63,086 nucleotides of DNA, from positions 6,255,829 through 6,318,914 of the forward strand of contig NC_057758.1 in assembly GCF_004010195.1 (NCBI RefSeq). Direction: 5' to 3'. The stretch is from Chiloscyllium plagiosum. Taxonomy: Eukaryota. Positions 22,899-51,530 of this stretch are shown piece by piece. Position numbers and translations under genes: made by a program. The notes below the pieces were generated by a model. The model did no database searches, was not told the DNA's origin, and saw only the letters and a list, made by a program, of their open reading frames with translations. Positions within the stretch are counted from its first letter, which is position 1. Each line of letters begins with the position of its first letter.

Positions 22899-23127
22899 AT
22901 GAGAATGGTTGACAATCTGAATACAAAGGACTGGAATATACTTGCAATGGATAAGAATCTGGAAACAATGAACTGGAATGTTACAATACATTTCAGGAGT
23001 CTATCTTGGTATCTTTTCGTACTTTCCACTTACTATGATCGTTTGCCATTGCGATCCCGAATACAATATACACTTTACATTATTCAAGGATATTACTATC
23101 CCATCATTGGTTTTGTAGGAATTTCCG
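22899..23127 (+). CDS. GPR139/GPR142-like class A GPCR, gene A, exon 1 (N-terminus and start of TM1)
   Basis: The frame ends ..IIQGYYYPIIGFVGIS, followed by a consensus donor G|GTAAGT at 23127/23128. This phase-1 donor matches the acceptor at 28864. An NVT sequon is present. The start codon is ambiguous because there are several in-frame ATGs. Confidence 0.82.
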
Positions 23128-24309
23128 GTAAGTCTTGCTATCCAAGTATTGACTCGAAGTGAAAACTACTTGTGAATTCATGAGCGTCCTTGCCAATTGT
23201 TCTCTCTCATATCTCCTAATTAACAGTCTCCTTTCTTTTGTTGAACCTCTATATCCGGTTTTGGGCATTTATATTCGTTTTTTTTTAAGTACAGGAGTAA
23301 ATTGTTAAATTCAGTGGTATCAATGTTTATTTATCAGTCTGTAAAACCCGATTCGTATCTGCCTTGACTAGTTAGGTTTTGGAAGATCGCAGCATGCAAA
23401 TTCTATTGACTATCTACTGACTTCACTTCATCATCGCATGAGTTTGAAACAGGTTGTACCACCTTCACTTTTTAGTAATCATTGTGAAATATTGATAAAG
23501 GGAAAAGAGTAGGAGCAGTCAATAAAATGGTCATTCCATCCTGATCCACCATTCCGTGCAATCATGCCTATTCATCTCTGCCTTTGTGAACTTGTCCCTC
23601 CTTATCTCAGTTCTACACTTTATCGTTGGCCTGTGACAGTATCATCCTTCCTGCGTTCGCCATGTCTAGTCCTGCTCGAATTGTTAGTCTGAGGTTTCAA
23701 TGAGATCTTCCCCGATCTGCCCACACCCACGCCATTCTTCCAAACCCCATCAGATGCTGTCCTTTCCGAGGCAGTGTCTCTTAAAACATTAATCCTGCGA
23801 TCACAGCAATCCGTGTGAGAGCAAGAGACTTGAACTGCACAATAGATGAAGTCATCTCATATATTCTACATCACCAAATTGTCACCGGCTTCCTTAGCAG
23901 TAAATTCAAACTTAACTCTTCACATACTCAGCTGGTCACTTTCTCGTTTCAAAGATGCATGGGCGAAGTGTCATGAAACAAATGCCGCCGTCCCATCAGC
24001 TCTGTGTTCACTCGTCTACGTTCAGGCATACCGTGATAGCTCCTCAATATTGACATTTCAATTAATATTTCTGCACTTTTATGACGCCCAAATTCCTCAT
24101 CCGCTGCCCATTTCAAACGTTCGTGCGTTTTTTTGTAAATCAAAGTCGGTGTTCAGACAGACAGCATTTTCATTATTAGCTCTGTTTCAGAGATGTCCCA
24201 ATTTGGTATGTGCTGATAAGGTGCCAATGACAGAAATCAAACAATCCAGAATCTAATCCTATGATCAAGAGACAAGGACTCGAACCTGACAATGATCTTG
24301 TGAAGATGG

Positions 24310-24985
24310 ACCAGGTGCCGGCCATTCAGCCTCTTGTGGCAGGTCGACCATTTAACTTGATCATGGCTGACGTAATCTCGGTCACAATTCCACTTTCATG
24401 CCCGTTGCCTTTGACTACTTGCTCATTAAAGGAATGTCAATATCCTCATAAATTCTGTCTGTGCCCAGACATCAACAGCACTTTGGAGCGGTTTATTCCA
24501 CGAATTCACAACACATTAAAATACCACCGATTTTCAACGTTCATTACCCATTATCCCAAACATAACACCTATCCTTCTGGATCGTCCCAAAAGTGGAATA
24601 TTTCCCTCTCAACTCAATTTGTCCATCTGATATTGCATTTTCCAAAGCACAAATAGATCTCCTCTGATTCTTGGAAAGGCCAGAGTATATGCAGTTGTAC
24701 TCCTCAAAACCTCTTCCCCGCGGGACAAGTCTGACATTTCTGGAACTGATTTAGTGAATCCCCCTCTTAAGTACCTCCCATGTAATAGCATCCCTGCTCT
24801 CGTAAGTGGAGCAAAATTGAGAACAGTACTACAGGTGCAGTCTCATAAATGTCTTCTACAGATAAAGCAACTTTTCCCTACTTTTATGCTTCTTTTTCAT
24901 CAAGGAATGCTAGAAATTGCAATTTCTCTCCTTATTACATGTTGTAACTTCACACAAGTATTCTGTGATTCATTGTATCATGGTG
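24310..24985 (-). mobile_element. Decayed CR1 3' fragment in the gene A intron
   Basis: Reverse complement of the CR1 3' UTR (GCCATTCAGCC..ATCATGGCTGA) and of the C-terminal coding region (HLYCSQFCSTY-like). Confidence 0.55.
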
Positions 24986-25448
24986 TTATTTGAATTCTAT
25001 AAAGGACTGGAATGAAATGCTCGTCTCATCATGAGCCTTTTGTTATTGTCAGCAATTAAAAGAAAAACTATTCCAATTGGTTTATATGTTTGACCGAATG
25101 AATTGCTGTGCTATTATGCTACCCTGTATTATTAGTGAAGTGATGTAAGCGGTGGTCTCGATTGCACGCATCCTACAAGACATAGACCAGATCAGTAAAA
25201 GGCAAACAATCTTTTTTCTTTACTTCACACGTGTACATGTCGACGCTGGCCAGTCCAACATTTATTGCCCGCCCCTGGTTACCAAGTGCCAGAACATTTT
25301 TGAAATCTTGTAGTTCATGGCCTTGACGAGGGATTTCCAGGGATTGATGCAGTGACAGTGAAGGAAAGATGATACATTGCCAAGTCTATCTGGTGAGTGG
25401 CTCAGTGAGGAATTTGGGAAAGGTATGCTTTCAGAAATTTGCTGCAAT

Positions 25449-25755
25449 GTGTAAAGCAGTCATTTGGCCCAGCAAGTCCACACCGACTCTCTGAAGTGTA
25501 TCGCAACTAGATTTGTTTTGCTACTCGATATTTACCAAACCTAATGCAAATAATCTACATATCCGTGAATATCATAGTCAATATAGCATGGCTAATTCAC
25601 CCAAAGTGCAACATACCAGGACTGTGGGAGGAAAGCAGAGCACCCAGACGGGATACACACAAACGCATGGACATTGCGTTTCACACAAGTTCACGCAATA
25701 TTCACACTGGTGCACTATAAGGCACCAGTACGAATCACTGAGCCACCACGCCGCA
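25449..25755 (-). mobile_element. Decayed HE1-like V-SINE
   Basis: CATGGCTAATTCACC..GGACTGTGGGAGGAAAGCAGAGCACCCAG and CACTGAGCCACCACGCCGC are the reverse complement of the V-domain and tRNA head. Confidence 0.72.
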
Positions 25756-25839
25756 CTGTTGCGTTTACATGTATCTGTTGCCCGTGTAAATCTCGATGTT
25801 AATGATCGTGAGATTGCTTGGTCTTACAGTGGAGATAGT

Positions 25840-26729
25840 GTTGTAGTTCTGTTCGCCGAGCTGGAAGTTTTTGTTGCAAACGTTTTGTCCCCTGGCTAGG
25901 CGACATCATCAGTGCTTGGGAGCCTCCTGCGAAGTGCTTCTCTGATGTTTCCTCCGGTGTTTTTAGTGGTCTGTCCCTGCCGCTTCCGGTTGTCAGTTTC
26001 AGCTGTCCGCTGTAGTGGTTGGTATATTGGGTCCAGGTCGATGTGTTTGTTGATGGAGTATGTGGATGAATGCCATGCCTCTCGGAATTCCCTGGCTGTT
26101 CTCTGTCTGGTTTGCCCATGATAGTAGTGTTGTCCCAGTCGAATTCATGTTGCTTGTTGTCTGCGTGTGTGGCTACTAAGGATAGCTGGTCGTGTCTAGT
26201 TGATGTTCAAGTATGCGGATTGTTTGCTGTCTTCCTGTTTGTCCTATACAGTGTTTTGTGCAGTCCTTGCATGGTATTTGGTACACTACATTCGTCTTGC
26301 TCATGTTGGGTATAGGTCCTTCGTTCTGGTGAGTTGTTGTCTGAGCGTGGCTGTTGGTTTGTGTGCCGTTATGAGTCCTAGGGGTCGCAGTAGTCTGGCT
26401 GTCAGTTCCGAGATGCTCCTGATGTATGGTAGTGTGGCTAGTCCTTTTGGTTGTGGTATGTCCTCGTTCCGTGGTCTTTCTCTTAGGCATCTGTTGATGA
26501 AGTTGTGCGGGTATCCGTTTTTGGCGAATACCTTGTATATGTGTTCCTCTTCTTATTTTTGCAGTTCTGGTGTACTGCAGTGTGTTGTGGCCCTTTTGAA
26601 TAGTATCCTGATGCAGCTTCGTTTGTGTGTGTTGGGGTGGTTACTTTCATACGATACGTTTGCAACAAAAACGTCCAGCTCGGCGAACAGAACCACAACA
26701 ACGAGCTACAAATCTTCGCACAAACTTTG
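25840..26729 (-). mobile_element. Penelope-like element with inverted terminal repeat and 12-bp TSD
   Basis: The minus strand reads MSKTNVVYQIPCKDCTKHCIGQTGR..RILEHQ (GIY-YIG) and EAWHSS. 25840-25882 is the reverse complement of 26655-26700. The TSD AGTGGAGATAGT is at 25828-25839 and 26730-26741. Confidence 0.9.
25878..25912 (-). ncRNA. Minimal hammerhead ribozyme-like core in a pLTR (degenerate)
   Basis: The minus strand reads CTGATGA-T-GTCGCC-TAGCCA-GGGGAC-AAAACGTTT, with GAAA changed to AAAA. Confidence 0.55.
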
Positions 26730-27109
26730 AGTGGAGATAGTACTCACTGCTGCCTTAGATGAGAGGATCTGTGTGAATGTAGTGCCAGTTAAGGAAGAAG
26801 CGTTAAGAAGTACAGAGGAGTCTCTGTTTTGTTGGGTTTGAACAAATTCAGACAAGTAGTGAGAATCCCGTTGCACTCATGACAACTTTTGCCTTGTAGA
26901 TCGTGAACAGAATTTGAGAAGGATTCAGGAGGGAAGGCATTCTCTGCAACGTTCCTCGACACCAACCTGCTGTTGTTATTCTTCATGATAGAGGACTCTT
27001 GAGGCAGTAATGTCAAGACTATTTAAAATTACTACTATGGAATCAAGATTTAAGGGATAAGGCAGAGCAGTGACATCTGAACGATCTAATTTGCAGAAAA
27101 ATAGAGCGT

Positions 27110-28247
27110 AAACGAAGGGAAGATGATGACGCAAAGGACGCCCACTTCCATGGCAGAACACACCAGAAGGCCTCCTTCTTTAAAGACCGTAATATCATGT
27201 CCCACTGGTTGAAGATGCCCTCCAACGCATCTCATCCACGTCCCACACTCCGTGCTCAATCTCCACCCTTCCAACAACAACAAGGACAGGATCCCCTGGT
27301 CCTCACCTTCCACGCCCACCAACATCCACATAAACCGCATCACTTGCCGACTTTCCCTTCACCTACAATCGGACCCCACCACCAGGATATATTTCCTTCC
27401 CGACCCCTATCCGCTTTCTGCAAAGGCCATTCCCTCCGTGATATTAGGTCCATGTCTTCCAACAAACCATCTTCCCCTCCTGCTACCTTCCCCTTCCACC
27501 GCAGGAATTGCAAAAGCTGCGGCCACACCACCCTCTCATCTCCATCCAAGGCCGCAAAGGAGACTTCTACATCCATCAAAGTTTCACCTGCACTTCCACA
27601 AAGGTCATTTATTGCATCCATTGCTTCCGCTGTAGTCTCCTTTACATTGGGGAGACTGGATGCCTTCTCACAGAGCGTTTCAGGGAACATCTCCAGGACA
27701 CCTGCAGCAATCAAACCCACCACCCCATTGCCAAACATTTCAATTCGACCTTCCACTCTACAGAGGAAATGCAGGTCGTCGGCCTCCTCCACCGCGCCTC
27801 GCTCACCACCCAATGCCTGAAGGAAGAACAACTTAACATTCGCCTCAGTACCCTTAAAACCCAGGGCATCAATCTGAATTTCACCAGTTTCCTCAATTCC
27901 CTTTCCACACAGTCCCCAGTTCAAAACCTTCAGCTCAGCACCATCCTCTTGACCTCTCCCACCTGTCAATCTTTCTTCCCCCCTCTCTGCTCCACCGTCC
28001 TCTCCGACATATTTCATTTACCCCTTACTCCATCCACTTATTGCACCCTCAACTAGCTTCGCCCCAGCCACACACCCTCCCATTTATCTCTTCATAATCG
28101 AGGCTTTCAGCCTCATTCCTGACGAAGGGCTCCTGCCAGAAACGTATATTTTCCAGCTCCTCGGATGCGACATGACCTACTATTCTTATTCAGCACCACT
28201 CTCATCTTGTCTCTAATCACCAGCAAATGCAGTCCTCACTTTTGCCA
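27110..28247 (+). mobile_element. Penelope-like element, 3' part with pLTR
   Basis: NKDRIP(LVLTFH), FTCTSTKVIYCIHCFRCSLLYIGETGCLLTERFREHL..HPIAKHFNS..EEQLNIRLSTLKTQGINLNF (GIY-YIG). The pLTR is at about 28100-28247. Confidence 0.9.
28119..28145 (+). ncRNA. Minimal hammerhead ribozyme core in a pLTR
   Basis: CTGACGA-A-GGGC-TCCT-GCCA-GAAAC-GTA. Both catalytic boxes are intact; stem II has one mismatch. Confidence 0.62.
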
Positions 28248-28669
28248 CAAGTGTAGAGTCACCAAGTCTGAAACTCCAAACTGACAAAATATAATTTGAG
28301 GGTATATGAGGTTCTGCGGTTATTGGAAGATGGAATAGAGGAACTGCATTCTATTTAAATAGAGAACTCCATGGGTCAAATGTCACTCCTTAGTAGCGAA
28401 TTAATTTCCAACTCTCTGCTTTCAAATTCTGCCCATGAATTAATCTCTAGTCATCGCATTTGATTCTGTTCGCCCCCCCGTCAACTCTAGTCACAGCTTC
28501 ATAGTGATGCACTGCTTTGTTAACCGCACTTTCTACTCCCTGAACCCTGGATGACGTACTGAAAGGCGATTTCCCTTTTACAATGCATTTTTTAAATTTT
28601 TCAACATGTGTGTCCTGCGTCAATAATTAACACAGATCAATTAGTAAAAAGGGAAGGAATTGCGAATAT

Positions 28670-28782
28670 CATAAATCAGAAACTTTAATAAAAGCTTTTT
28701 GAAAAGCTGAGCAGGCTTGACAACATCTTTGAAGAGAAATCATAGTTAACATTTCAGGTCCAGTGATCCGGACTCAGAACAA
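28670..28782 (-). mobile_element. Decayed PLE-derived terminal-repeat fragment
   Basis: The minus strand reads GTTCTGAGTCC-GGATCACTGGACC-TGAAATGTTAAC..AGATGTTGTCAAGCCTGCTCAGCTTTTC, with the same layout as the other pLTRs. Confidence 0.5.
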
Positions 28783-28864
28783 GTTTTCACAAATCCACAT
28801 TCGAACTGAGATTATATTATCTAGCCTGAAGTACTCTCACCGTGTTTATTTCCCTTCCTCACAG

Positions 28865-29763
28865 TGAACGTGATCACAATTAGGATCCTGAGTCACGGAG
28901 GGTGCGGTCTCTCGAATTGCATCACAACTTACCTGATCGCCATGGCAGCTTCAGATCTCCTGGTGATTATTCTCGATCTGATTTTGAGGCACTTGCCGAC
29001 CTTTTATCCAAGAACATTTTATTCATTGCTGGAATTGCCCATATGTAACATCCATGCTGTTCTGCTTTATGCAGTCACTGACTGCTCTGTGTGGTTTACG
29101 GTCGCATTTACCTTTGATCGATTTGTGGCGATTTGTTGCCAGAAACTTAGAAATAAGTATTGCGTTGAGAAAACAGCGACCATAGTTCTGGGAACTGTAA
29201 CTGCGGTGAGCATCTTAAAGAATATTTTCTGGTACTTTGCCTTAACGGGTAAGTATCAACACATGAATTTCCCGTGGTTTTGTGTTGCAACGGATGATGT
29301 TCAGATGTCCCCTGTCTGGGTAACAGTGGAGTTCCTGCACAACATAATAACACCATGTATTCCATTTCTGCTGATATTACTGTTCAACACCTTCACAGTC
29401 AGAAACATCTTAGTGAGCAGCAAATCCCGCAGGCGACTCCGCTCTTCCAGCAACAATGAAAGTCACAAAGACACAGAGATGGAGAGTCGGTGGAGATCCA
29501 TCATTTTGCTCCTGGCAATTTCCGCAAACTTTATCTTGTTATGGTCAACTTTAATGATTGTTTCGATTTGGAGGCGGCTGTTTAATCTCGGCTTTAGATC
29601 TGTGTTAATTCATGATTATGTACAAGAACTGGGTTTCATGTTGCAGCTCCTGAGCTGCTGCACGAACACTTGTGTCTATGTCGTGACCCAGAGTAAGTTC
29701 AGAGAGCAGCTAAAGATTATGCTGAAATATCGCTTCACCCTCATTCTTCAATGTTTGCGATGA
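28865..29763 (+). CDS. GPR139/GPR142-like class A GPCR, gene A, exon 2 (TM1-TM7 and C-tail); spliced product 375 aa
   Basis: Pyrimidine tract and CACAG acceptor; the join gives GIS-V-NVITI. Motifs: AMAASDLL (TM2), PICNIH (TM3 Cys), FTFDRFVAIC (DRY-like), PWFC (ECL2 Cys), TPCIPF (TM5), NFILLW (TM6), SCCTNTCVY (TM7), KFREQLK (helix 8). No internal stop codons. Confidence 0.92.
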
Positions 29764-30149
29764 GGACAGACAAACATTTATAGAGAGGTGCCAGTGTTTA
29801 GCAATGTTTTTTGATAACTGCTGATGCACCTAAAATCTTTAACATCATTTATAAACTTTTCAAACATTTTGTAGTTTTTTTTTAAATCAACTACAATCTT
29901 AACGTCATTTTTTACATAACAGCGTAAGCACAATGCAATTGTAAAGCTATTCCGGCCCTTGAACCTGTTCCACCATTTAATATGATCAAGGCTGATCACA
30001 TCTAGGCCTCAATTCCATTATTTTGCCTGATGTAAACAACCTTTCAATCCATTTTTGTTCACACGTTTACACATGCACACTTCAATTTACTCACTGTTTT
30101 GTCTTTCACCATATTCAAGCAGGACGAAATCCACAAAAAAAAAACACAA

Positions 30150-33100
30150 TAGAATATAGAACGTATATTACAGTGCAGTGCAGGCCCTATGACCCTCGAT
30201 GTTGTGCCGAACTTTCAAACCAACCTGAAGACTATCTATATGGCATTGTTATATTTTCATCCATTTGTTTATCGAATGGCCATTTAAATGCCTTTAAAGT
30301 TGGTGGAGTCTATTCTTGCAAACAGGGCTTTCTACGCCCTTACTAATGCCTAAGTTAAGAAGCTACGTTTGATATCGGTCCTATGTATCACCCGTTAATT
30401 TATAGCTGTGTCACCTCGTGCTCGCTATCACCATCTGATGAAAAAGGCTCTCACTGCTCACCGTGTCTAACTGCCTGATTATCTTCTATGTCTCAATTAA
30501 GTCACGTCTCACCCTTCCTCTCTCAGCGACAAGTACTCAGACTTTCGTCACAAGATGTACCCTTCTTACCAGGCAACATGCCACTAAATCTCTTCTGAAC
30601 TCTTTCTTACTCATCCATATCCTTCGTATAATGTGATGACCAGATTTATCCAAGTCCATCGGCACCAGAGTTTTTTACAGTTGCAGAATATTCTCTTGGG
30701 TCCTAAACTCAATCCCTCAAACAATAAAGCTAACGCACTTAATGCAGTCTTTACAAAACTAACAACCTGGGTGGCAACTTTCAAAGGTCTGTGTACACGG
30801 AGAACGCAATCGCTCCGTTCGTCCACACTTCCAATAATCTTACCTTTAGCCCAGTATTATTTACTCCTGCTGCTCGTTCCAACGTGATTCACCTCACACT
30901 TTACCGCATTAAACTCCCCTGCCACCTCCAGTCCAGCTCTACAGCTTATCTATGTCCCCGTCTAACCTGAAACACCCTTCAGCATGATGTAAAACTCCAC
31001 TGGCATCAGTGTTATCTGAAAATTTACTAATCCATCATTCCTCGCCCTCGTTGAGGTCATTTGGGAAATGGCAGATAGGAAAGGCACCAAAGCAGATCCT
31101 TGTGGTACACTACTGGGCGGCGCGGTGGCACAGTGGTTAGCACTGTTGCCTCACAGCGCCAGAGACCCGGGTTCAATTCCCGCCTCAGGCGACTGACTGT
31201 GCAGAGTTTGCACGTTCTCCCCGTGTCTGCGTGGGTTTCCTCCGGGCGCTCCGGTTTCCTCCCACACTCCTAAAGATGTGCAGGTCAGGTGAATTGGCCA
31301 TGCTAAATTGCCCGTAGTGTTAGTTAAGGGGGTAGATGTAGGGGTATGGGTGGGTTGCACTTCGGCGGGGCGGTGTGGACTTGTTGGCGGCCTGTTTCCA
31401 CATTGCAAGTAATCTCACTTCTATTAACTGAACTTCGAAATTCACGTTTCCCATCAACCACCACGCTGTGTTCTTTCAGGAGCCCATATCGGATCCAAAC
31501 AGCTAAATCATCCTGAATCATATGCCTCCGTATTTGTTCAATAATCTACCGTGGGGAAACTTATCAAACGCCTATACAGGACAATAAAAGCTTCACCCTC
31601 TTGCACCCGTTTGTTCACCAATTTAAAGAACTGAATTACATACGTGAGGTACGAAATTGCCTTCGTAAACATGTGTTGACTATCCCAAATCAACCAATTT
31701 ATCTCGAGATGAGTATATACCATAACTATTATAACTTTTTCCAACGCTTTACCCACAACTGAACTACGTTTCACTGGTCTATCATGACCAGGGTTGTCTC
31801 TTCTTGAACAAGTTAGCACCATTTGCTATCCTCCAACCTACTGGCTGTATACCTGTCGAGAATGACGACATAAAGATCAAAACCAATCTCCTCCCTGGAA
31901 TCCCAGAGATTCCTATGATATATCCCATCCATTCCAAGGGATCTATAGGTTTTCAAACTCTCTAGATTTGCTTACACCTCCTCCATGTGAAATTCAATCC
32001 CGTCTCGGAGAGTAGCCTGTACCATAGTGTTCTCCTCTACAACATTGTCTTTTTCGTTTTTGAATTCTGAGTTAAAATATTCATTTATCGCTTCCCCCAT
32101 CTCCTCGGACTCCACGCACAAAGTCCCACTACTAGCTTCATTGGCCTAAAGATTTCTCAAGTGATTATTTTATTCCTGATTTACCCACAGTGAAGTTTAG
32201 TGTTGTCCTTGATCCTGTCTGCCAATGACTTCTTATGTCCACTCCTGGCTCGTCTTAGCTCTCGCTTTAGTTCGCTCTTGGGGAACTTTTAACTCTTAAG
32301 CACCCTTACTATGCCTTTGCGTCTCATCCTAACATATGTCTGCCTCTTCCTCTTAACAAGAGATTCAACTTCTTTAGTAAACTTTGGCTCCCTTGGTCGA
32401 CTACTTTCTCCCGCCTAACAGGCACATACCTATCAAGGACACGCTGGAGCGGATCCTTGAAAGAGCTTCACATCTCAATGGTGCCCATTCCCTGCGGTTT
32501 ACTTCCCACCTGTACATCATAAATCGTTGCCTAATCGCATCTTAATTGCCTTTATCTCAGCAAGAACTCATGCCCTGTTTTATTTTCCTATCCATCTCCA
32601 TGTCTGAAGTTAACACAATCGAATTGTGGTCACTATCACTGCAGTGCTCACCAACCGCCAAATCGAATACCTGACCTGGCTTATTACCCTGTACCAAATT
32701 CAATGTGGCTTCACCCCTTGTTAGCTTATCTGCATGCTTTGTCAGGAAACCATGTTTCACGCAACGGACCCACTTAAAGTACTCGAACTGCATTTTTTCC
32801 AGTCAATATTTGTAAATTTAATGTCCTCCATGACAATCACCCTGTCACTGTCTCTCCTCTCCAGAATTATCTTTGCTATCCTTTCTTTTACATCTGTGGA
32901 AGTATTCCGAGGCCTGGAGAAAACTTTTGACCCCTCCTTTCCTGTTTGTAAACTCAGCCCATACTACTTCAGTCGATGAGTCCTCAAACGTCCTCATTGC
33001 CACTGTAGTCCTCTCCTTGGTGGACAATGCTGCATCATCCCCTCTTTTACCATCTTCTCTGCTTTTACTGAAACCTCTTAATACCGGAACCTAAAACAAT

Positions 33101-34135: not shown

Positions 34136-34138
34136 TGT

Positions 34139-34454
34139 GGGCGGCACGGTGGTACAGTGGTTAGCACTGCTGCCTCACAGCGCTAGAGACCCGGGTTCAA
34201 TTCACGCCTCTGGCGACTCTCTGTGTGGAGTTTGCACATTCTCCCCGTGGGTCTGCGTGGGTTTCCTTCGGGTGCTTCGGTTTCCTCCCACAATCCAAAA
34301 ATGTGCAGGTTAGGTGAATTGACCATGCTAAATTGTCCGTAGTGTTAGGTGAAGAGGTAAATGTAGGAGTATGGGTCTGGGTGGTATACGCTTCGGCGGG
34401 TGGGTGTGGACTTGTTGGGCCGAAGGGCCTGTTTCCACACTGTAAGTAATCTAA
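34139..34454 (+). mobile_element. Full-length HE1-like V-SINE
   Basis: GGGCGGCACGGTGGTACAGTGGTTAGC..GGTTCAATTC, V-domain and GTAATCTAA tail. No TSD visible. Confidence 0.92.
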
Positions 34455-35850
34455 TTGAGGACCCCTCAATCTCCTTTTTTCTAGTGCAAATAAAACTAAC
34501 CTACTCAAACTCTCTTCATAGCTAGCAGCTTCCATACCAAGCAAAATCCTCGAAAACTTTCTCTGCACCCTCTCCAAAGCATTCACATCATTTTGATAAT
34601 GTGGTGACCAGAACTATACACAGTATTCTAAACCAATGTCTTGTACAATTTGAACATGACTTGCCAGCCCTTGTACCCAATACCCCGTCAAATGAAGACA
34701 AACATACTGTATGCCTTCTTGATCACTCTGTCCACCTGTGCATCAATTTTCAGGGAACAATGGAGGTGAACACCAAGATATCTCTGCCAACCAAATTTTC
34801 CCAATTCTCTTCCATTCATTGTATCATTCGCTCTAGAATTTGCTTGCCGAAATGCATCACCTCACATTTTTTTTCTGGATTTGACTCCATGTGCCACTTT
34901 TCCACCCAACTCTCCAATCTATCTGTATTCTCCTGTATTCTCTGACAGTCCCTTATGCTTTATGATACTCCACCAATCTTCGTGTCATCTGCTAACCTGC
35001 TAATCATACCATCAGTGCCCTCTTCCAGATCTTTTATGTATATTACAAAATACAGGCGGCCACACACTGACCCTATCAAACACCACTGGTCACCTTTCTC
35101 CATTTCCAGAAACTCCGTTCAACTTCTACTCTCAGTCTTCTGTTGCTCAACCAGTTCTTTATCCACCTAACTATAGAACCCTGCACACCATATGACTTCA
35201 CTTTCTCCATTAGTCTCCAATCGGGAAACTTATCAAACGCCTCACTAAAGTCCATTTATATGACATCAACAACCTTTCCTTCATCTATCAACTTGGTCAC
35301 TTCCTCGAAGAACTCTATTAAGTTAGTAAGGCACGATCTTCCCCGCACAAACCCACGTTGCCTATCACTGATAAACCCATGTTTTCCTCAATATAAATAA
35401 ATCCAATCCCTCAGTACCCTCTCCAGCAACTTTCCTACGACCGACGTCAGGCTCACTGGTCTATAGTTACCCGGAATATCCCTACTACCCTTCTTGTACA
35501 GAGCAACAACATGAGCAACCTTCCAGTTCTCCGGCACCTCACCTGTATTTAAGGATGCCACAAAGATAACTGTCAGGGCCCAAGCTTTTTCCTCTCTCGA
35601 CTCTCTCAGCAACCTGGGATCGATCCCATCCGGTCCTGGTGATTTGTCCATCATAATACCCTCTATCCTACACAGTACATCTTTCCTACTGATGTCAACA
35701 TGTTCCAGACTAATCAAACCTCTACCTCTATTCTCAAAATTCATGATGTTCCTCTCCTCAGTGAACACTGATGCAATGCAATCAGTCAGAATCTCATCCA
35801 TTTTCTCAGGTTCGAGACGCAACCTTCCTTCGTTATCCTTTCGTGGATGA
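34455..35850 (-). mobile_element. CR1 ORF2 RT fragment
   Basis: DKSPGPDGIDPRLLRE, NWKVAHVVALYKKGSRDIPGNYRPVSLTSVVGK and ALERVQRKFSRIL. Confidence 0.9.
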
Positions 35851-36864
35851 GGTAAATATCTTAATCCGTGCTTCATCTTCCCATCAGCCCCCTGCTGGAC
35901 CCTCCCGTCTTACTACTGCTGAAACAACAGTGGAGGGCCGTGACCATCAAGGTAAGTACGCTCAATGCATTGCGAAAGAAAGTCTGGTTCATCTTGTCTA
36001 CATCTGCTCTCCTTTCTCTTAAAACTACAATCTCTCACTCTAGATTGTCCCTCCTGAAAATGCAAGACCTCCGCTTTGCCTTTGCCATAATCTTTCGCAT
36101 CAAAACCTCGTTAATTAGAACTCATTTCATTCTTCTAAACTCCTGCGAGCTGTTAGCCCTAAACTGCTCAATATGTCTCCATAAGCCAAGGACGTTACAT
36201 CTGGAATCGATCTGGGGAAATTACCCTGAACATCCGTCAATGAGGTAACATGTCTCTCAAGTGAAATGAGGAAAACCTTACACGGTATTGCAGACTTGAA
36301 AACAGCAATGCCTTGTGCAGTTGCAGCAAAAGTTCCCTTATTCTTTGTTACAGTTCTTGAACAATAACTGCAAACATTCCATTTGCAATCTTATTTCCTG
36401 TTTTTTCAGCCTCTGAGCCATATGGTCATATGATGTTTTCCAATTCAAATAATTCTCAAGAGGGAAGTGAGACGGCTCAAAAGACAAATGTTTCTTCACA
36501 AAAGAGACATGAAGACCGCAGATTTCCAAAACTCATTGATGCTAACAATCACAAAATAATGATTCATGAAAGGTAGCTGTAGTCAGGCTCCTGCCTTTTT
36601 CCCAGCACAATTGACTTCCTGATCATTCCAAACGCTATATCTTTCAGACTTGAAGACCTTGAGTGATTTGGACTGCAGTCATTGTTCAATTGTTTGAGGG
36701 TGATTGGGGAAGAGATGGAGAGGAGATGGAAAAACATTCCTGTCCTCCAGGAGAAGAGAAACAGTCTCATTATCATGTCAAGTTATAAATCGACTCTTGA
36801 AAAGTTTTCCACCTCTCGAATATCTTGTCACACAGCTTTCCTGTATTACATATTCAGATCACCT

Positions 36865-37364
36865 NNNNNNNNNNNNNNNNNNNNNNNNNNNNNNNNNNNN
36901 NNNNNNNNNNNNNNNNNNNNNNNNNNNNNNNNNNNNNNNNNNNNNNNNNNNNNNNNNNNNNNNNNNNNNNNNNNNNNNNNNNNNNNNNNNNNNNNNNNNN
37001 NNNNNNNNNNNNNNNNNNNNNNNNNNNNNNNNNNNNNNNNNNNNNNNNNNNNNNNNNNNNNNNNNNNNNNNNNNNNNNNNNNNNNNNNNNNNNNNNNNNN
37101 NNNNNNNNNNNNNNNNNNNNNNNNNNNNNNNNNNNNNNNNNNNNNNNNNNNNNNNNNNNNNNNNNNNNNNNNNNNNNNNNNNNNNNNNNNNNNNNNNNNN
37201 NNNNNNNNNNNNNNNNNNNNNNNNNNNNNNNNNNNNNNNNNNNNNNNNNNNNNNNNNNNNNNNNNNNNNNNNNNNNNNNNNNNNNNNNNNNNNNNNNNNN
37301 NNNNNNNNNNNNNNNNNNNNNNNNNNNNNNNNNNNNNNNNNNNNNNNNNNNNNNNNNNNNNNNN
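36865..37364. other. Assembly gap (500 N)
   Basis: Run of exactly 500 N, probably a placeholder length. Confidence 1.
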
Positions 37365-41914: not shown

Positions 41915-43400
41915 TCGAACTGAATTGAACTGAATTGAATTTATTGTCACGTATACCGAGGCATAGTGAAAAGCTTTGTCTTGTGAGAAATTCAGGCAGA
42001 TCACTGCGTTAAGTGGCAGACATAAGTAAGTAATAGGAAACAGTGCCAAGAACAAAAACACAAGTACAACCGAATGCTCAGAGTTTGTGAGTCAATTCAG
42101 TATTCTGACAACAGTAGGGTAGAAACTCTTACGTTACCGGCTACTGCGTGTGTCGAGGCTACTGTATCTTCTCCCCGATGGTAGAGAGTGCAGAAAAGCA
42201 TTGCAGGGTGGGAAGGATCTTTGGAAATGCTGGCGGCCTTTCTTTAATAGGGGGCCTATGTAGAACGATTGTATAGATGGGAGGTTGGGCTTTGTGACTG
42301 TCCGGACCGAGTTCACCACTCCTCGTTACCGTGTCTGATCTAGAATAGTACAGTTGGCTACCAGGCTGTAATAAATGCATAGACAATTCTCTCGGTGGTG
42401 CACCTATAACAGTTAGCAAGGTATGAGCTATCATACCTAATTTTCTCAGCTGCCCGAGGAAGAAATTACACTGTTGGGTCTTTGTAACCAATGCGTCCAC
42501 GGGAAAAGTCCAAGAAAGCGTATTCTGGATGACCACCTCCACGAGCTTGACACTCTCCATTCGTTCCAGCTCTGTGCTGCTAAATTTTAGGGGGCATGAT
42601 TAATATCCCGCCGAAAGTTAGCAATGATTTCCTTGGTTTCGCCCGCTTTGAGAGCTAGGTTGTTCGCAATGCACCGTTTTCCAGCTCTTCCACCTTCCAT
42701 ATATAACCTGTTTCGTCACCATCTGAGATTCGATCGACTATAGTGATGTCATCAGCAAACGTGTAAATGGCCTAGTACTTGACGATGCAGTCGTGGGTAG
42801 AAAGTGAGTACATTATGGAGCTGAATACGCATCTCTGGGGGACTCCAGTTTGAGTGTGAGTATGGATGAATTATTGCCCGAAATCTTCACTGATTGTGGT
42901 ATGTGAGTCCGGAAACCGAGGATCCAGTCGCAGGGAGTGGGGCTAAGTTCGAGTTTACTAAGTTTAATAATCAGTCTTGAGGGGATAATAGTGTTGATCG
43001 TTGAAATGTAGCCAATGAATAAGATTCGTACATAGCTGTTCTTGGTGCCACGATGTTCGAGGCAGGTGTGACGTGTCAGTGATATGGCATCTGACGTGGA
43101 TCTGTTGGCCCAATAGGCAGATTCGAGTGGGACAAGAGTAGTGGAGAGGCTGGAGTTGATTAATGCCATAACCAGCACTTCAAAGCATTTCAAGACGACT
43201 GAAGCTCGGGCCAGTGGGCGGCAGTCATTGAGACATGTTGCGTGAGGCTTATTAAGCACAAGGATGATGTTGTCTATCTTGAAACAGGCAGGGATAGTGG
43301 CCTGCTTCAGGGAAAGGTTGATGATGCCCGAGAAGACCTCTGCCAGTTTATCTGTGTATGCTCTGAGTGCGCGGCCTAGTACTCCATCTGGTCCTATCAC
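41915..43400 (-). mobile_element. Rex1/Babar-type LINE, 5'-truncated
   Basis: GPDGVLGRALRAYTDKLAEVFSGIINLSL..CLNDCRPLA..LKCFE..AYWANRSTSDAI..YVRILFI..NTIIP..CDWIL..QSVKI, and LPSGRRY near the C-terminus. The 3' end is AATAAA followed by (TTCA[A/G])n at 41917-41945. Confidence 0.85.
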
Positions 43401-43466: not shown

Positions 43467-43630
43467 GTCAGGACTTTTCGGAATTGGCACAGACAGAGAG
43501 AGAGAGAGAGAGAGAAAGAAAGAGAGTGAGAAAGGGATATATATATATATATATATATATCCCTTTCTCGCTCTCTTTCTTTCTCTCTCTCTCTCTCTCT
43601 CTGTCTGTGCCAATTCCGAAAAGTCCTGAC
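43467..43630. repeat. 164-bp near-perfect palindrome centred on (AT)n
   Basis: GTCAGGACTTTTCGGAATTGGCACAGAC(AG)n..GGG(AT)nCCC..(CT)nGTCTGTGCCAATTCCGAAAAGTCCTGAC, with one mismatch. Confidence 0.95.
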
Positions 43631-45044
43631 CTATATATATATATATATATAGCCAGAAAGAAAGTAGAGATAGAAAGAATGAAAACGCAAAGAATGATAG
43701 ACGGAGAAAGGCAGAGAGGGGCAGAAGGACATGGGTTTGGTAGGGAGAAGCTAGCATGGAGAAATACAACAGATAGAGAGATAGAGGGAGAAAGACACAC
43801 GATGAGAGGAAGAGAATGAGTCCGTGTCAAAGAGAAACAGACAGACTGAGAGGGGAAGCAGACAAATTGAGAGAGACACTTCGAGTTGGGGAGCACACAC
43901 GGACCTGTAATTAAATACTCCTGGGTTCAAGGTGTTCATCAACGATTGTGAATGGAAGAAAGGAGGCGAGGTGGCAATTTTAGTGAAAGAGGGAGTTTTA
44001 TTTCTCGGGACAAAGGATGATCCAGGGTGATTTTCCTTGTTGTTTATTTTCCTTGCTTTATTTATTTTTGCACATTCGTTTGCCGTTTCAAATATTTCCT
44101 TAGTAGCACTTACCGCAGTGGAAAGTTGAGCTCAGTGTGGAACATAGGTATCGTCAAGATGAGTCCAAAATGCAGTCATGGCAGCACTGGCATCGAGTGG
44201 CGAGGTGTGTTATTGGAAAGTGGCAGTGATGTTGATCTGTCCAACCCAGTCAGCAGCTTTTGCGATGCTAGCATTGATGTGCCCAGTGCAGAACTCATAG
44301 CTGGGAAGAATGACAAATGTTTGCTCCAATCATGGAGATGTTAATGTTGTTAGGGCAGAGAATGGCGACATGATTTTTGTCGCAGGCCCCGATAAGTAGA
44401 CCCAGAGAAGAATTTCAGGGCGTTGTGAGATGGTGCTACAGAATGCACAAGCTGTGTGGCGATGTTTTTGAGTCTAGTGTAAATAGCATGAATGAGCTTG
44501 ACCCAGGATTCATGGCAGTGCGAAACAATAATTACCCAGTATTAATTGGAAAAGCCATATTGTAAAGGGCAGAGAGAGGCAAGTGTTCTTCAATTGCATT
44601 TAGCATAAATTTCTGCGTCAATATGTGCCCAGTACAAATGGAAGTGATATGCCGTAGATCTGATTCTTTGAAATGTGGTGATCCCAATGGATCAAGTGAA
44701 GCATATTTGGCAGATGATGATCACTTTATTGGAAGTTTGAGAATGAAGGTGTAGAAGAACAGTGCTCAATCAATCGTAATGTTTGGCGGAGAGAGAGAGA
44801 TCTTCAATGTAACAAGAACAGGGTCAAAGCCAGAAAGACGGCAATAACAATTTCTTTGGTGAGATTGGAAGTAAATAATGTACGACCTTCCAAGTGGAGA
44901 TGACCTCTGCGCGAACAAGTCTCTTTTCCATACTCTGGAAAGGTAGGACAAACAAAGACACAGCAACTTGTTTGATAAAGGAGCTAAACGAAAACTAAAA
45001 AGATGTTTTGATGGCAGGAATGTGACATGACAAAGCCATATCTT

Positions 45045-45350
45045 TGCGGCACGATGACTAAGTAATTAGCACACTACCCTCACAGCGCCTAGGTCTAGGA
45101 TTCGGTCCACCCTCGAGTGAGAGTTGTGTTGAGTTTGAAAATTCTCTCCGTGTTGGCTGATGTTTCCTCCCACAGTTCAAAGATGGGCAAGTTGGGTGAA
45201 TTGGCCGTGTTAAATTTTCTCGTAGTGTCAAGGGATGTGTGGATTGGATATGGAAAATGCAGGTTTGCGTTGATGGGGCTGGTCTGGTTGGGCTGATTTC
45301 CGTGTGTTGGTGCAGACTCCATGGGCTGAATGGCCTGTTTCAACAATGCC
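45045..45350 (+). mobile_element. Decayed V-SINE
   Basis: GCGGCACGATGACTAAGTAATTAGCAC head, TTTCCTCCCACAGTTCAAAGATG, and GGGCTGAATGGCCTGTTTC tail. Confidence 0.72.
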
Positions 45351-47254
45351 GGGATTTGATGATCTGTGACAGGCTTCGAAAAACAACGGAAGGCAAATGA
45401 TGACAGGGAAGGGAGAAAGCATAGTACAGAAGCAAAGAAGTATTCTAAGAAAAGAGTGACAGCTGACATCAACTGATGCGCCGAAGTGCTTAATATATAC
45501 ATAAATAGTCTCACAAAGTGATAATTCAAACGGTAGGCATCATGGGCAACTGAAAAACACATGGAAACGGAGAGCAGGCAATTTTTAAAGATGAGCTGAG
45601 ATCACGGGAGAAAAGGTGTTCCTTGAAACTAGCAGAGAACGCCAAGCTCGGCAATGATAAATGTAGAGAGTAACACACAAGCAGGTTGCAGATGCACAGA
45701 GATAGGTTAAGTGAGTGGGCAAAGCCCGACAGCTGAAGCACAACATGGGAAAGGGGAAATGTTCACGTTAGGCATACAGATGGTGCGGCCATTATCTCGG
45801 GATGAAATGCCTTCATATTGTGTTCATCTTGACCTTCTCATGGTTTTTCCCAGTCTGTGCTGTCTCTTTCCGAACTGAACGTTTAAGGTACAACAATCTC
45901 AAATCCCCGCGACATTATGCTTCGAATGTGCGGTCCCAGTCCCTTCTGGTTAAGGGATATCCGCTTTCTTTCTCGTTCTCTCCCCCTCTCCCTCCACGCT
46001 TCTCGACCTCTCTCGTTGCCTGTCTCTCACCATCCACTGCAGGTTTTACGGTCATCCATTTTCTGATATTCGTGAACACATTTAAAAAAAGAATCAGTCA
46101 CAAACGATCCTCATTCTTGAGACCCAGACTTTGAAGTACCCACAGCATTATATCTTACTTTTGTGAAGAGAATGTTTTTTTTTTGGGGAGAGGTGGGGAT
46201 GATGCGGTAGATCAAATACCTGCCCCTGTATCTCAATAATCCTGTTTAAGACATATTTCGTATTCATTGTGCAGTATGTTAATTTACATGTTATCCCCTT
46301 TTTTTAACTCTTACTCTGAGAGGACCAATACATTACTGCTTCCTGAGGCAGTGTTATCGGCCCCTGCATTATTCATTCCTTTTTTCTTTAATCTCCGAGT
46401 GTTCCTCCGAGTTCCCACGCTCCTGACCAGGCCGTTAAAACCTGCCCAGTGGTAGGAACATATCAGCTGCCCATGCAATCTGAACCAAACTCTATCGATG
46501 TGTATCACCTGGGAGCTGTGAAGTTCACGTGAGTCTCATCGCTGTTGAGATTACGCCTTCATTCTAAAGCAATCCATGCCGCAGCACTATTGTAAATATG
46601 CACTACGTCTCGTTACATTTCTTTCTTCAAATGTGAACCATAGCACCTCACCAATATTCTCTGTTAATTTCTAAAACTTCTGGAACAGATCCATTGTTAT
46701 CAAATAATGGCAAACATGTCTGAAACAAACAAACAACGGTTTGCGATTAGAAGAACGTCATTGAGATGAGATCTGAATTAATATTTTCATCTAAGCTTGG
46801 TGCAATTATGTGATATACCACCGAAGAGCGTGTTGGAGCCACGTATTCTCAAAATATTTAAGAAGCACTTGGATGACAACGTTACAAAACAGGGAACAAT
46901 AGTCTCTTTACCAAATACAGGAATTCGTGCAGTTTGATGTTTGTTTGTTGGCTCAGATATGCTGGGCTAAATGTTCTGTTTCTCTGCTGTATGATCTTCT
47001 GCCTACATGTTGTGTGCAAAACAGTATAACATTTCAATTAGATTAAGAAGATCATGCTCCCCTTCCACATCCTGTCTCCCGGAGTATGCTGGATGGTCTG
47101 CACATCCTTGGTTTATGTCACCCATGATCTGCCTAAGTGGTGCAGTTCTGCAAAACCACCTCTGACTTCAATTAACAAAATCAAATTGAGAATGACAAAA
47201 TTGGAAGGCTTTTGAGAGCTTCGTTCCTTTGTTCAATAATTTGTTTGCAGATCA

Positions 47255-47565
47255 TAGAATCGCCACTGTACGGAAACCAGCCATTCAGCACAGCAGGTTC
47301 AAAGTGGACCTATTCCGCTATTACTATGCATTTAGTCCTGGTAAGTACATCTAATCTACAAATTCCTGCATACGAGTTGTAATTTAGCATGGCCAATTCA
47401 CCTGACATGCACATCGTTGCATTGTGGGAGGAAACTGGAGCGAACCCATGACGGCACGGGGAGAACACACAAATTCGACACAGGCAGTCACCTGATGATG
47501 GAATCACACTCGGATTCTTGGCAATGTGAGGAGGCAGTACTAACCACTGAGCCACTGTGTCGCCC
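47255..47565 (-). mobile_element. Decayed V-SINE
   Basis: AATTTAGCATGGCCAATTCACCTGAC..TGTGGGAGGAAACTGGAGC..CTAACCACTGAGCCACTGTGTCGCCC. Confidence 0.8.
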
Positions 47566-47856
47566 TACCTGAATGGAGACAGTGAATGCTCCCCCGCTGC
47601 TCGGGGCACGACGGATGTTGATTTGAAAGATGTTAGCTAAACCTATTTGTTCAGGAACTGCAATTAATGCCAGTCTCTATGGGTCACGTTGTGTCGCCAG
47701 AGAGATCTCCAGTTCTCTTCATAAAGGGAGACATTACAAAGTGTGATCTCATGGAATTAGAGAGAGGCCTCAGCTGAGACTTGCACAGGGTTTGACGTGT
47801 CTAAGGGGGAGAAGAGCAAATTCAATTTGAGAAGGGCATACTTGACCATTATAGCA

Positions 47857-48037
47857 ATGGAATGGATTCCGGATTCAGCAGATTGGAGATTCACAAATAT
47901 AAGCTGGAAAGACTCTTCGCATTTTTCCTTTTACATTAGAAATCAACATTTGATGCTGTTCTACGATCGAATACGACATGCACTCCTGCTGTTTGAGCAC
48001 ATCTACGACCCATTCCTTGCAGTCGTGGGTGTCTTTG
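47857..48037 (+). pseudogene. GPR139/GPR142-like GPCR, gene B, exon 1 (donor reads AT instead of GT)
   Basis: MEWIPDSADWRFTNIS..RIRHALLLFEHIYDPFLAVVGVF aligns with gene A RIQYTLYIIQGYYYPIIGFVGIS. At the homologous phase-1 junction the sequence is G|ATAAGT. Confidence 0.7.
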
Positions 48038-48209
48038 ATAAGTATTTCTATTTAGTGAATTCAATCCATGAACCGGAGATGGAGGTGGGGTCTCTTTCAA
48101 ATGAAAAGAGATCCAGCAGTTTAGAATGTTATACTGACTGCGTGCTGAACTTGATGGGCTTGGCTGACTGGACAAATGCTTTTGCATTCAGCGTGATATT
48201 AGCATCGAT

Positions 48210-48794
48210 AGTTCCATTCCTGTATCTGATAGTCAGCCCAGCTCACACTCGTTGTAACTGAAATATAACTAAGAGCAACATGGGTTTCTGCATGGCTATG
48301 AAACCTCCTTTCGCGGAATGTGATAATGTGCAGATTATCCACATCACTATCATCCTGATCTCTGTCACAATTTATGATAAAACTTTCCTCCAACGTCAGC
48401 TTTAGGCTGTTGTTTTCCAGGCATCAGCGACCTTTGTCTTTCTCGAAGGGTTTCGAAGATGCTGTCTGAGTGATTTGCTGTAAGATTCCCAGCGTCGAGT
48501 AAGTTCCATTCCTGTATCTAATAGTCAGCCCAGCTCACACTCCTTGCAACTGAAATATAACTAAGAGCAACATGGGTTTCTGCATGGCTATGAAACCTCC
48601 TTTCGCGGAATGTGATAATTTGCAGATTATCCACATCACTATCATCCTGATCTCTGTCACAATTTATGATAAAACCTTCCTCCAACGTCAGCTTAAGGCT
48701 GTTGTTTTCCAGGCATCAGCTGCCTTTGTCTTTCTCGAAGGGTTTCGAAGATGCTGTCTGAGTGATTTGCTGTAAGATTCCCAGCGTCGAGTAA
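48210..48794. repeat. Tandem duplication, 292-bp period, in the gene B intron
   Basis: AGTTCCATTCCTGTATCT occurs at 48210 and 48502. Both units end CCCAGCGTCGAGTA and differ by few substitutions. Confidence 0.92.
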
Positions 48795-50447
48795 CTCATG
48801 TATTTATGAGATTCGAGCAGATTAGTGTAAATGATAAGTCAATCTGAACATTGCAGCCAGTCAACAGCACGTACAATGAATACATCAATTAATGAACAGG
48901 AGTCACTGTCGAGAAAATCTCAATTATAACTCCCTCAAACATCTGTCATCGCTCCAAAACTGCTCTGAGGGTTCTCCGATGTTTCCTCTTCTGCTCAGTC
49001 CACTCATAAACAAGATGTTTCTTCCATTGGAGTAGAAAACTCACAAGGCAATCAACAGCCTCCTCACACCAATAACAATGATATAAAACGAAATTGTCAG
49101 CAGAACGCTGTGCCAAAAACGGGAGTGTGGACCTCTCATGTTCCCAAACCAGCTGCCTTTCTCCAAACATTTCTGCTTTCGTCTCAAAATCCCAGCCTTC
49201 ATTGTTTTCATTTTACAGTCACAGAGTTTGACCTGGATAAAAGGGGAAAGTTAAAGGCGAAACACATGTCATACGAATAGCTGATGGGAGATGTTCATTT
49301 ATTCGGAAAAAAAACACAACTTCAAGACAAAGCTCGTATCCGCAGGAATTTCCAACAATCAGTGGTGAAGTACTGAAGCGCCAAAGGGGACTTGTCCGGT
49401 TGAAAGGTGAAATCATATTCCCTCATTTTAACATTCGATTCAAAGTAGGGATCTAAACCATGTGAAATGGAGACATTCAAGAGAGCTTGCCGGGAGCAGG
49501 GTCAAGTTAATGGCGAAAGAAAATTTGCAGACTTGGTAAAGAGACTACAATCCAGGAATTGCAACCCGAACACCGCGAGTGGCAGACGATCAGCGGAGGT
49601 GTGTCAGCACTAAAGCGACGCTAGCTATCTCGGATTTGCCGTTCTGCCAACATCCAGTCATGAATAATGGCGGACAATGAAACTAGGAAATGAGGGACGG
49701 TGTTTGACCAATCTGCCCGTCTTCTGCAAACCGACATGTCATGAAAGAAAGAACCCTAAGTATTAATTAGTTTTATTTCAGTCAGAGGCATCTTACGGTT
49801 TTATCACCTTTGCATCCTTTCAGTCTACTTGCCATACGTCGCAAATCTATCTCAGCTTTAGGAATGAATGCATGGGCGTCCAGAATTGGATGCTTCGCTG
49901 ATGATGCTGTTTCAACACAAGGAATACACCGGCGTCTACGTTCCTGTCATATATTCTCCCGTTAAAAGAAACCATCAGGAATTTCTGAAAATCTGGCAGA
50001 ATCTGTGGAGAGAGAACAAAAAGAAAAGTTCACACATAATGCCCATTCTACGATACAATCTTAGACAGTGACACACCCACAAACGAACCTCACCGCCATC
50101 CCTTACTCCCCGTTCTGAACTGCTGCAATCCTCCTTCCCACTTTTGCCCTCCTGAGTCACGTTTCGAATCTAGAATGGCTCTTCTACATGAGAGCATCTT
50201 TGGTAAGAGGAAAACGGTTAAAATTTGTAGCTTAATACGACTTAAATATGCACAAGTACTTCCGAGCGCACAATGTTTCATAGCAAGAATTTTCCCAGTC
50301 ACACAACCCTCTGAGAGTAACAGTTCATCCTCATTTCAATCTTAAATGGGTGCCGCTTCGGACTGAGTGTGCTCCTTTTCTGTTGTGAAAAGCAATGCGT
50401 GCTCTTCACCTGATTGTAACTTCCAGATTTTGTTTTCTTTCTGACAG

Positions 50448-51508
50448 TTAACGCAGTGGCGATTGCAATCTTCCCTCGAGCTAATTGCGGTGTATCCAAA
50501 TGTGTATCTTTGTATCTGTTGGACATGGCAGTGGCGGATCTATTGGTCAATATCCTTGACCTTATCCTGAGGCACATTCCAATTGTTTATAAGACATATT
50601 TTCAGTTCGTGAAGTCTGTTCCTGTGTGCAATGCCCATGCCATTCTTGTGAATTCAGCTACAGAGTGTTCTGTGTGGTTTACTGTTGCTTTCACAATTGA
50701 TCGATTTGTGGCCATCAGCTGCCAGAAACTGAAACGCAAATACTGCAATGTGAAAATGTCATCTGTGATATTGGGAACAGTGACAGTTCTGAGCTGTTTA
50801 AAGAATATGTTTTGGTATTTTAAGTTAACAGGTCAATATCGGGTAAAGAACATTCCTTGGTTTTGTCAGGAAAGATTGAATATTGTATTATCTCAGTGCT
50901 GGGCAACAGTCGAAATCATTCATTATCTTCTAACCCCATGTTTGGCAATACTTTTGACCGTGCTGTTTAATGGTTTATGTGTCAGACATACCCTAATTGC
51001 CAAAAGTGCCCGCGTCAGATTGCAGACTCTGAGAAAGGGGATGCATGCCACTGACCCGAAAATAGAAAGTCGAAGAAAATCTATAATTTTGCTGTTTCTC
51101 ATTTCGACGAACTTTATCATGTCGTGGGCCGTCATTACGCTCTATGTAATATGGAGAAGAGTGCGGCGGATTGTGCAGACGCGAATCTTCCTGCATTATT
51201 TTGGACAGGAAATTGGATACATTTGCCAACTCACCAGTTGCTGCACAAATATTTGTATTTATACTGTGACATTGAACAAGTTCAGGGACCAGATGAAGGC
51301 TGTGTTGAAACGTCCATTTACACTTATTAAAATTAAGCAAAGAAACGCATTTTCAAAAAATACATACATATCATGGATATTAAACGAAAGATCCGCTACT
51401 GCCATGTCCAACAGATACGTGTCACAAATTCGCTTGATTCGTGATTGCATTCGTCAACACATTAACTGTGAGAAAAGAAACAAATCGTGGAAATTAAACA
51501 TTAGTTGA
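50448..51508 (+). CDS. GPR139/GPR142-like GPCR, gene B, exon 2; open frame with aberrant extended C-terminus (possible pseudogene)
   Basis: Acceptor TTTTCTTTCTGACAG|TT AAC (phase 1, V-N-A-V). Motifs: MAVADLL, PVCNAH, FTIDRFVAISC, PWFC, TPCL, NFIMSW, SCCTNICIY, KFRDQMK. Gene A stops after FTLILQCLR, whereas this frame continues about 55 codons further. Confidence 0.8.
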
Positions 51509-51530
51509 AGAGCACACATTCTACGAGACA
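51360..51530 (-). pseudogene. Inverted remnant of a third GPR139-like paralog (intron end and start of exon 2)
   Basis: The minus strand reads AATGTGTGCTCTTCAACT..TTTCTTTTCTCACAG|TTAATGTGTTGACG (V-N-V-L-T)..YLLDMAVADL, homologous to 50394-50560. Confidence 0.85.

Follow-up and report, generated by a model that had tools for sequence, protein, structure and literature searches.

Two GPR139-like receptor genes of Chiloscyllium plagiosum belong to a large and apparently undescribed receptor family of cartilaginous fishes

In mammals, the G protein-coupled receptors (GPCRs) GPR139 and GPR142 are single-copy receptors for aromatic amino acids. The vertebrate chemoreceptor families OR, TAAR, V1R and T2R and the rodent vomeronasal FPRs are repertoires of short compact genes, gained and lost in tandem, which are diverse on the ligand side and conserved on the cytoplasmic face. 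MRGPR/MAS-related receptors form another lineage-expanded class A family, without canonical motifs in transmembrane helices (TM) 6 and 7, and have a plausible sentinel role. Some expansions of the invertebrate FMRFamide/sex-peptide/Srw clan are also used in chemosensation. GPR139/142-related orphan receptors of non-mammalian vertebrates, i.e. GPR210A, GPR210B and a third set, have been reported from bony vertebrates, with sharks absent, and the text concerned yields no match for 'shark' or 'cartilag' (Rinne et al., PMC6504862). The catshark is reported to have 34 V2R genes and 4–9 genes in each other chemoreceptor family, with olfactory neurons positive for Go and TRPC2 (PMC10116579), and cartilaginous fishes are reported to show a 'relative paucity' of GPCRs (PMC8455134). 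Described here is a 63,086-nucleotide stretch of the C. plagiosum genome (contig NC_057758.1, positions 6,255,829 to 6,318,914, forward strand; "the window"), which contains two receptor genes, A and B. They belong to a large chondrichthyan receptor family that is real and apparently undescribed. An earlier interpretation made without database searches (the sequence-only reading) had proposed a cluster of three GPR139/142-like loci and a candidate chemosensory family.

Six-frame translation of the window shows two long receptor frames, those of genes A and B, with the following parts.

22899..23127, + strand: gene A exon 1, ATG at 22899; N-terminus and most of TM1; family-profile match E = 5e-17
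23128..28864, + strand: gene A intron, GT-AG, phase 1, inside TM1
28865..29763, + strand: gene A exon 2, from the end of TM1 through helix 8 to the stop; intact; Pfam 7tm_1 E = 1.4e-15; predicted model pLDDT (predicted local distance difference test) 86
22827..22994, + strand: four degenerate 42-bp repeats (14-amino acid (aa) DWNxT-like unit) surrounding the gene A start
47857..48037, + strand: gene B exon 1, ATG at 47857; family-profile match E = 8e-4
48038..48043, + strand: gene B donor, non-canonical, ATAAGT where GTAAGT is expected (AT for GT)
50448..51508, + strand: gene B exon 2, open frame; 413 aa if spliced at the ATAAGT donor; abnormal tail

A search with gene A exon 2 gave 1922 of 2953 candidate protein clusters at E ≤ 1e-10. 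Among the best 120 of these 1922, each less than 90% alike, 119 are named shark proteins, nearly all automatically named 'probable GPR139', and identity to gene A exon 2 is 59–67% with one exception at 48%. By genus, Heterodontus (horn shark) contributes 67 of the 120 clusters (188 member sequences), Heptranchias 19 and Rhincodon 12. The remaining 1802 clusters are presumably mostly chondrichthyan. When representatives at the 50% level are considered, 108 reach E ≤ 1e-30 among the best 150 of 650. Family members are also named in skate, stingray, devil ray and chimaera, and RefSeq proteins of the family include XP_038636253-6, XP_038657043 and XP_038654761. Some carry other automatic names, and counts by name thus undercount the family; P0028, P0161, P0198 and P0157 are annotated as capa, vasopressin V2 or tachykinin receptor-like. 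The tree shows species- and order-specific clades, e.g. one of 20 carpet-shark sequences with a support of 1.0, and expansion has therefore occurred repeatedly. The lineage-expanded family with gene birth and death that had been proposed is borne out by the cluster counts, by these clades and by the state of gene B. Several RefSeq models of the family contain repeat-derived (retroelement-like) stretches. The Heptranchias model P0001 has its TM5–TM7 half duplicated and probably consists of two merged tandem genes.

One shark alone accounts for at least 67 distinct members within the best 120 matches, which contradicts the picture of a small receptor repertoire and of GPCR paucity in these fishes (PMC10116579, PMC8455134). 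The proteins are already in RefSeq under an automatic name, and the expansion apparently has not been described. It was not found in the literature searched (titles, abstract starts, and some full texts and supplements), a search outside which lay subscription journals, the catshark organ-expression supplement and two shark genome papers (white shark, 2019; three sharks, 2018). The main texts of PMC11979771, PMC8455134 and PMC13694853 contain no mention of GPR139 or GPR, and the supplement of PMC8455134 shows a single GPR142 orthogroup label and nothing else. The family, apparently overlooked so far, is hidden under the name 'probable GPR139'.

The locus is an ordinary sample of this family. 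Spliced gene A is an open 375-aa reading frame in two exons and is predicted to be a live family member. Five partial RefSeq homologues start no more than 2–3 residues from its exon boundary. The start methionine of most homologues corresponds to position 22947 of gene A and not to 22899. The 42-bp repeat at the gene A start gives a 51% match at lag 42 versus 18–34% at other lags from 30 to 54, and the 14-aa unit is also repeated in homologues P0033, P0078 and P0103. This unit carries an N-glycosylation sequon, and homologues hold 0–4 copies of it (strict pattern, 120 models). In both genes the intron is in phase 1 at the codon preceding N1.50. No shared upstream DNA was seen between genes A and B within the window, and neither gene has a 26-bp array nearby.

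Gene B is most likely a decaying copy, because it has the ATAAGT donor, changes at 22 of 112 near-invariant family columns and a run-on tail of about 60 residues beyond the last conserved motif (homologue median 8; 94 of 120 homologues scored). Read-through of its exon 1 stops just past 48258, upstream of the next scanned donor-like site at 48480. At the same 112 columns there are 7 departures in gene A, 2–10 in each of five out-of-sample members of the subfamily to which A and B belong (the A/B subfamily) and 20 in one more distant member. Among the gene B changes are P5.50 and a charged residue in TM2. A caution on the decay call is that the assembly has several local duplications of 97% identity, of which one lies inside the gene B intron. 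The sequence-only reading had thus correctly described an intact gene A, a gene B with a broken donor and aberrant tail, and an acceptor at the same phase-1 position in TM1 in A, B and a third, inverted piece treated below.

Both genes encode class A GPCRs. 7tm_1 scores of 58 and 36 bits exceed the cut-off of 30.5, and the DRF motif (DRY-type), C3.25 and the cysteine of extracellular loop (ECL) 2 are present. Pfam matches on exon 2 of A and B consist of 7tm_1 and a weak Srx match. No OR, TAAR, V1R, T2R or V2R Pfam family is found for either exon 2, nor does any such receptor appear among the best 60 of 420 solved-structure matches. A fold search with the predicted model aligned about 260 residues to many class A receptors (Z about 24–25; root-mean-square deviation about 3). 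Generic class A peptide and amine receptors were tied in this search; GPR139 is not among the best 50 rows, which excludes nothing.

Variation among the family members was located by mapping positions by offset from the x.50 residues, and a pocket of 25 positions was compared with 33 other outer-helix and 67 inner positions. In 44 divergent chondrichthyan members the entropy is 2.62 bits in the pocket, above the 1.96 bits of other outer-helix positions (P = 0.001), which in turn exceed the 0.97 bits of inner positions. Two single-copy controls show the reverse order for pocket and other outer-helix positions, 0.04 < 0.41 in the amphibian control and 0.70 < 1.15 in the second. The A/B subfamily set consists of 117 sequences, i.e. 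the 120 listed minus P0001, P0002 and P0054 (internally duplicated or odd models). Here entropy is 1.79 in the ECLs versus 0.86 in the intracellular loops (ICLs), and in the controls 0.42 versus 0.96 and 1.53 versus 1.87. In 36 close pairs, differences are found at 539 of 1906 ECL sites versus 92 of 1037 ICL sites. In the control, 8 of 14 hypervariable columns are extracellular, whereas in the A/B subfamily this applies to all 15:

Gene A residues 125, 129, 132, 208, 210, 212, 217, 220, 223, 224, 313, 317, 321, 324 and 327: the 15 hypervariable ECL columns

Several of these alternate along the ECL2 hairpin of the predicted model. Ligand-side diversification, claimed from A and B, is thus seen at the family level against both controls. 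The outside/inside contrast is weak between the two genes themselves, with 60 of 136 extracellular and 80 of 153 intracellular positions identical and ICL3 identical at 1 of 12. Pocket variation across subfamilies over a conserved cytoplasmic face reads as the signature of a many-ligand repertoire.

A and B probably belong to a chondrichthyan-wide class A repertoire with many ligands and one signalling output, which is renewed by duplication and loss and originated from an orphan lineage related to GPR139/142. The family evolves through tandem birth and death. Its members retain a common cytoplasmic, G-protein face, and the ligand side diversifies at two levels: between old subfamilies it is the deep pocket that differs, and recent A/B-subfamily paralogues have the same pocket and a varied rim (ECL1–3). 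Each receptor would respond to its own ligand out of a large or fast-changing outside set, and the receptors would feed a single signalling route in sparse detector cells. Two features of chemosensory repertoires are present, a large lineage-specific expansion with pseudogenes and ligand-side diversification with a conserved signalling side. The resemblance to vertebrate chemoreceptors thus extends to tandem birth and death, short compact genes and the sidedness of diversity; the shark family differs in having no sequence membership in those families, in its TM1 intron and, within the subfamily, in a fixed pocket with a variable rim. Use in external chemosensory cells (olfactory, taste or solitary cells) is the leading guess and not a result, and overall falls a little short of an even chance. 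The small catshark sets of known chemoreceptors and the Go/TRPC2-positive olfactory neurons of that species (PMC10116579) are in keeping with a use in smell. Somewhat more tentative is the possibility of an undescribed chondrichthyan-specific chemosensory family from the GPR139/FMRFamide-receptor clan, larger than the OR, TAAR, V1R and V2R sets, with one or few receptors per sensory neuron and peptide-like cues. If this were true, sharks could no longer be held to smell with only a few dozen receptors.

Several points weigh against a many-ligand detector repertoire. The deep pocket of the A/B subfamily is conserved (0.47 < 0.89), unlike that of classic odorant receptors. The ratio of nonsynonymous to synonymous change (dN/dS) between A and B stays under 1, loops included (dN 0.74 vs dS 1.6, near saturation); at the 15 hypervariable codons dN is 1.51 versus an overall dS of 1.81, again near saturation and from one pair. 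Columns and sequences are not independent and P values are descriptive only, and the pocket positions were taken from a list and placed by offset. There are pseudogenes and chimeras among the automated gene models, and many matches lie on small scaffolds. The reported top 50 genes of catshark brain and olfactory epithelium include no GPCR, a list with low power for sparse receptors (PMC11979771). Catshark V2Rs are reported as robustly expressed in the nose, and no extra family is thus required (PMC10116579). The outcomes named beforehand as counting against a sensory family, i.e. few copies, uniform purifying selection and broad non-sensory expression, were not found where testable.

A variant of the same explanation differs in the site of use. 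The receptors would then act as MRGPR/FPR-like sentinels for peptides from microbes, parasites or injury, not for odours, and their site would be somatosensory neurons, skin, gut or immune cells. A fixed pocket with a hypervariable rim suits large ligands and an arms race, and the niche appears open, MAS1 and its relatives being reported absent from cartilaginous fishes (PMC8455134). The likeness to MRGPR/MAS receptors lies in lineage expansion within class A, non-canonical TM6 and TM7 motifs and the plausible role; ancestry is separate, and the shark family keeps the TM3–ECL2 cysteines. A skate 'probable GPR139' locus, LOC129716095, whose membership in the family is unverified, is reported at 1.5% of nuclei in a dorsal root ganglion neuron cluster, versus 0.1%; however the adjusted P is 1 and the spatial data show 'little or no expression' (PMC13694853). 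The readable supplement of a nurse shark spleen paper, one short file, gave no match. Sentinel use is considered unlikely.

Proliferation could also be non-adaptive, with duplication-prone DNA generating copies that are mostly redundant or dying, and loop variation reflecting relaxed constraint. The decay of one of the two local genes, the repeat-rich surroundings and the A–B dN/dS below 1 are in keeping with this, as is the N-terminal segment 37–57, which in close pairs is as variable as the loops (198 of 416 sites differ). However the variation is sided, pocket over non-pocket across subfamilies and ECL over ICL, opposite to both single-copy controls. In addition, 112 of 289 core columns are at least 95% fixed in 117 paralogues, and the family is present in sharks, batoids and one chimaera. 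This explanation appears improbable.

The residues that line the ligand site also bear on what the repertoire may detect. In GPR139, F3.33, H5.43, W6.48 and N7.38/39 are reported to be needed for Trp/Phe, and R6.51 and N7.39 are modelled as partners of the amino-acid backbone (PMC5430874). The A/B subfamily keeps the aromatic residue at 3.33 (Y/F), H5.43 and W6.48, while 6.51 is L/F (also I) and 7.39 is F, 112 of 117 each; the full GPR139 Trp/Phe site is therefore absent. With the polar binding residues lost, the suggestion of an amino-acid receptor is weakened. The subfamily has a fixed polar set of its own, D2.57, R2.61, D3.37, E5.39, R6.59 and E7.36. The shared anchor together with the variable rim suggests peptide-like ligands with a common anchor group. 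A role as internal receptors for neuromodulators or nutrients, in the manner of GPR139/142 (Trp/Phe, neuropeptides), with extra copies serving dosage or a split between tissues, is very improbable: GPR139 is the best solved relative and aromatic 3.33, H5.43 and W6.48 are kept, but the backbone partners are replaced, pockets differ widely between subfamilies, and receptors with one endogenous ligand show fixed pockets, as both controls do.

Motifs of TM6 and TM7 had formed part of the argument. Both genes indeed lack P6.50 (T in A, V in B) while keeping W6.48, and TM7 reads NTCVY in A and NICIY in B. The absence of NPxxY is not special, human GPR139 having NFFLY and the best-match homologues mostly NTAIY (at the third position A in 76 of 120, C in 30 of 120). 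Loss of NPxxY is common to the whole clan and loss of P6.50 to the P0244 lineage described below, and therefore neither marks a sensory role.

By sequence profile, human GPR139 comes first among solved receptors (106 bits, the next reaching 81; structures 7VUG and 9M42), ahead of peptide receptors. Membership in the broad GPR139/142-related clan, with GPR139 as the nearest characterised receptor, is thus indicated. Orthology is not supported by identity. Human GPR139 gives 25 bits pairwise (E = 9e-5). Higher scores come from a gene of amphibians and sturgeon (P0238, 109 bits) and one found across gnathostomes (P0244, 96 bits), which are the two closest non-chondrichthyan relatives, and from an invertebrate match (81 bits). 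GPR139 shares the lack of the NPxxY proline with the shark family, in which P6.50, R6.51, N7.39 and E3.32 are not kept and which has tens to hundreds of paralogues per genome.

A tree was built from 43 of 133 sequences. It groups the shark family with the amphibian/sturgeon gene and the P0244 lineage (95.8/98); the branching order among the three is weakly supported (37.9/85 and 29.1/79). A motif check of the 420 proteins collected gave no true GPR139/142. In the P0238 lineage (P0238, P0397–P0416), 21 of 25 matches are from amphibians or sturgeon, about one per species. It was found only in these groups in its search, has a near-invariant pocket and scores best among the bony-vertebrate relatives of the shark family. 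The P0244 lineage (P0244, P0279–P0396) is a conserved GPR139-like orphan, apparently single-copy, which occurs in sharks, bony fish, amphibians, turtles and squamates; the best 120 of 145 rows contain neither mammal nor bird. It lacks W6.48 and has its own shark orthologues. Two of its models are named TMEM183A isoforms, suggesting linkage. These lineages resemble GPR210A/B-type orphans. Both differ from the shark family in looking single-copy per species in the match lists and in their fixed pockets.

Beyond the vertebrate orphans, the next relatives are spiralian orphan receptors. Atlas neighbours are only like-named clusters and include some with Srw on 16–74% of members, a likeness to the FMRFamide/sex-peptide/Srw clan of invertebrates. 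GPR139 has been linked to AST-B/FMRFamide receptors (PMC12208981). The invertebrate expansions are separate and in other phyla.

The third of the three paralogous loci proposed at the outset lies at the end of gene B.

51362..51520 (about), - strand: inverted, frameshifted partial copy of the gene B acceptor and exon-2 start (source 50394-50559), about 160 bp, 69% identical, overlapping the gene B tail

This piece scores 136 against gene B (shuffle maximum 44) and 50 against gene A (shuffle maximum 37); over the same region A against B scores 78. The piece and gene B both carry A102D, which is found in 0 of 120 homologues. A profile search of the window showed no exon 1 for it and no further receptor exons. 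Its B-like score, the common A102D, the frameshift and the absence of an exon 1 in the window speak for an old inverted duplication from the gene B lineage rather than a third gene, and this is the preferred reading. The window therefore holds two genes, A and B, with an inverted B-like piece. This begins at the expected site of the gene B stop, within the read-through tail; the piece and the aberrant tail are a single event, which replaced the stop of B. Alternatively, the piece may be the remnant of a deleted B-like neighbour gene. A 45-bp tandem repeat (2.4 copies, 51634-51742) is situated just beyond it.

A 500-N gap (36865-37364) lies between genes A and B; their real spacing may differ from that in the assembly, and a hidden gene is possible. 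Local duplications of 97–99% identity and one palindrome are found at 4630-5034, 8290-8948, 48210-48794, 10913-11119/13863-14069 and 43467-43630, and are possibly assembly artefacts. Broken retroelement-like frames are present at 3150-4720, 25800-28050, 34200-35909 and 42162-43400, LINE-like and GIY-YIG/Penelope-like by their motifs.

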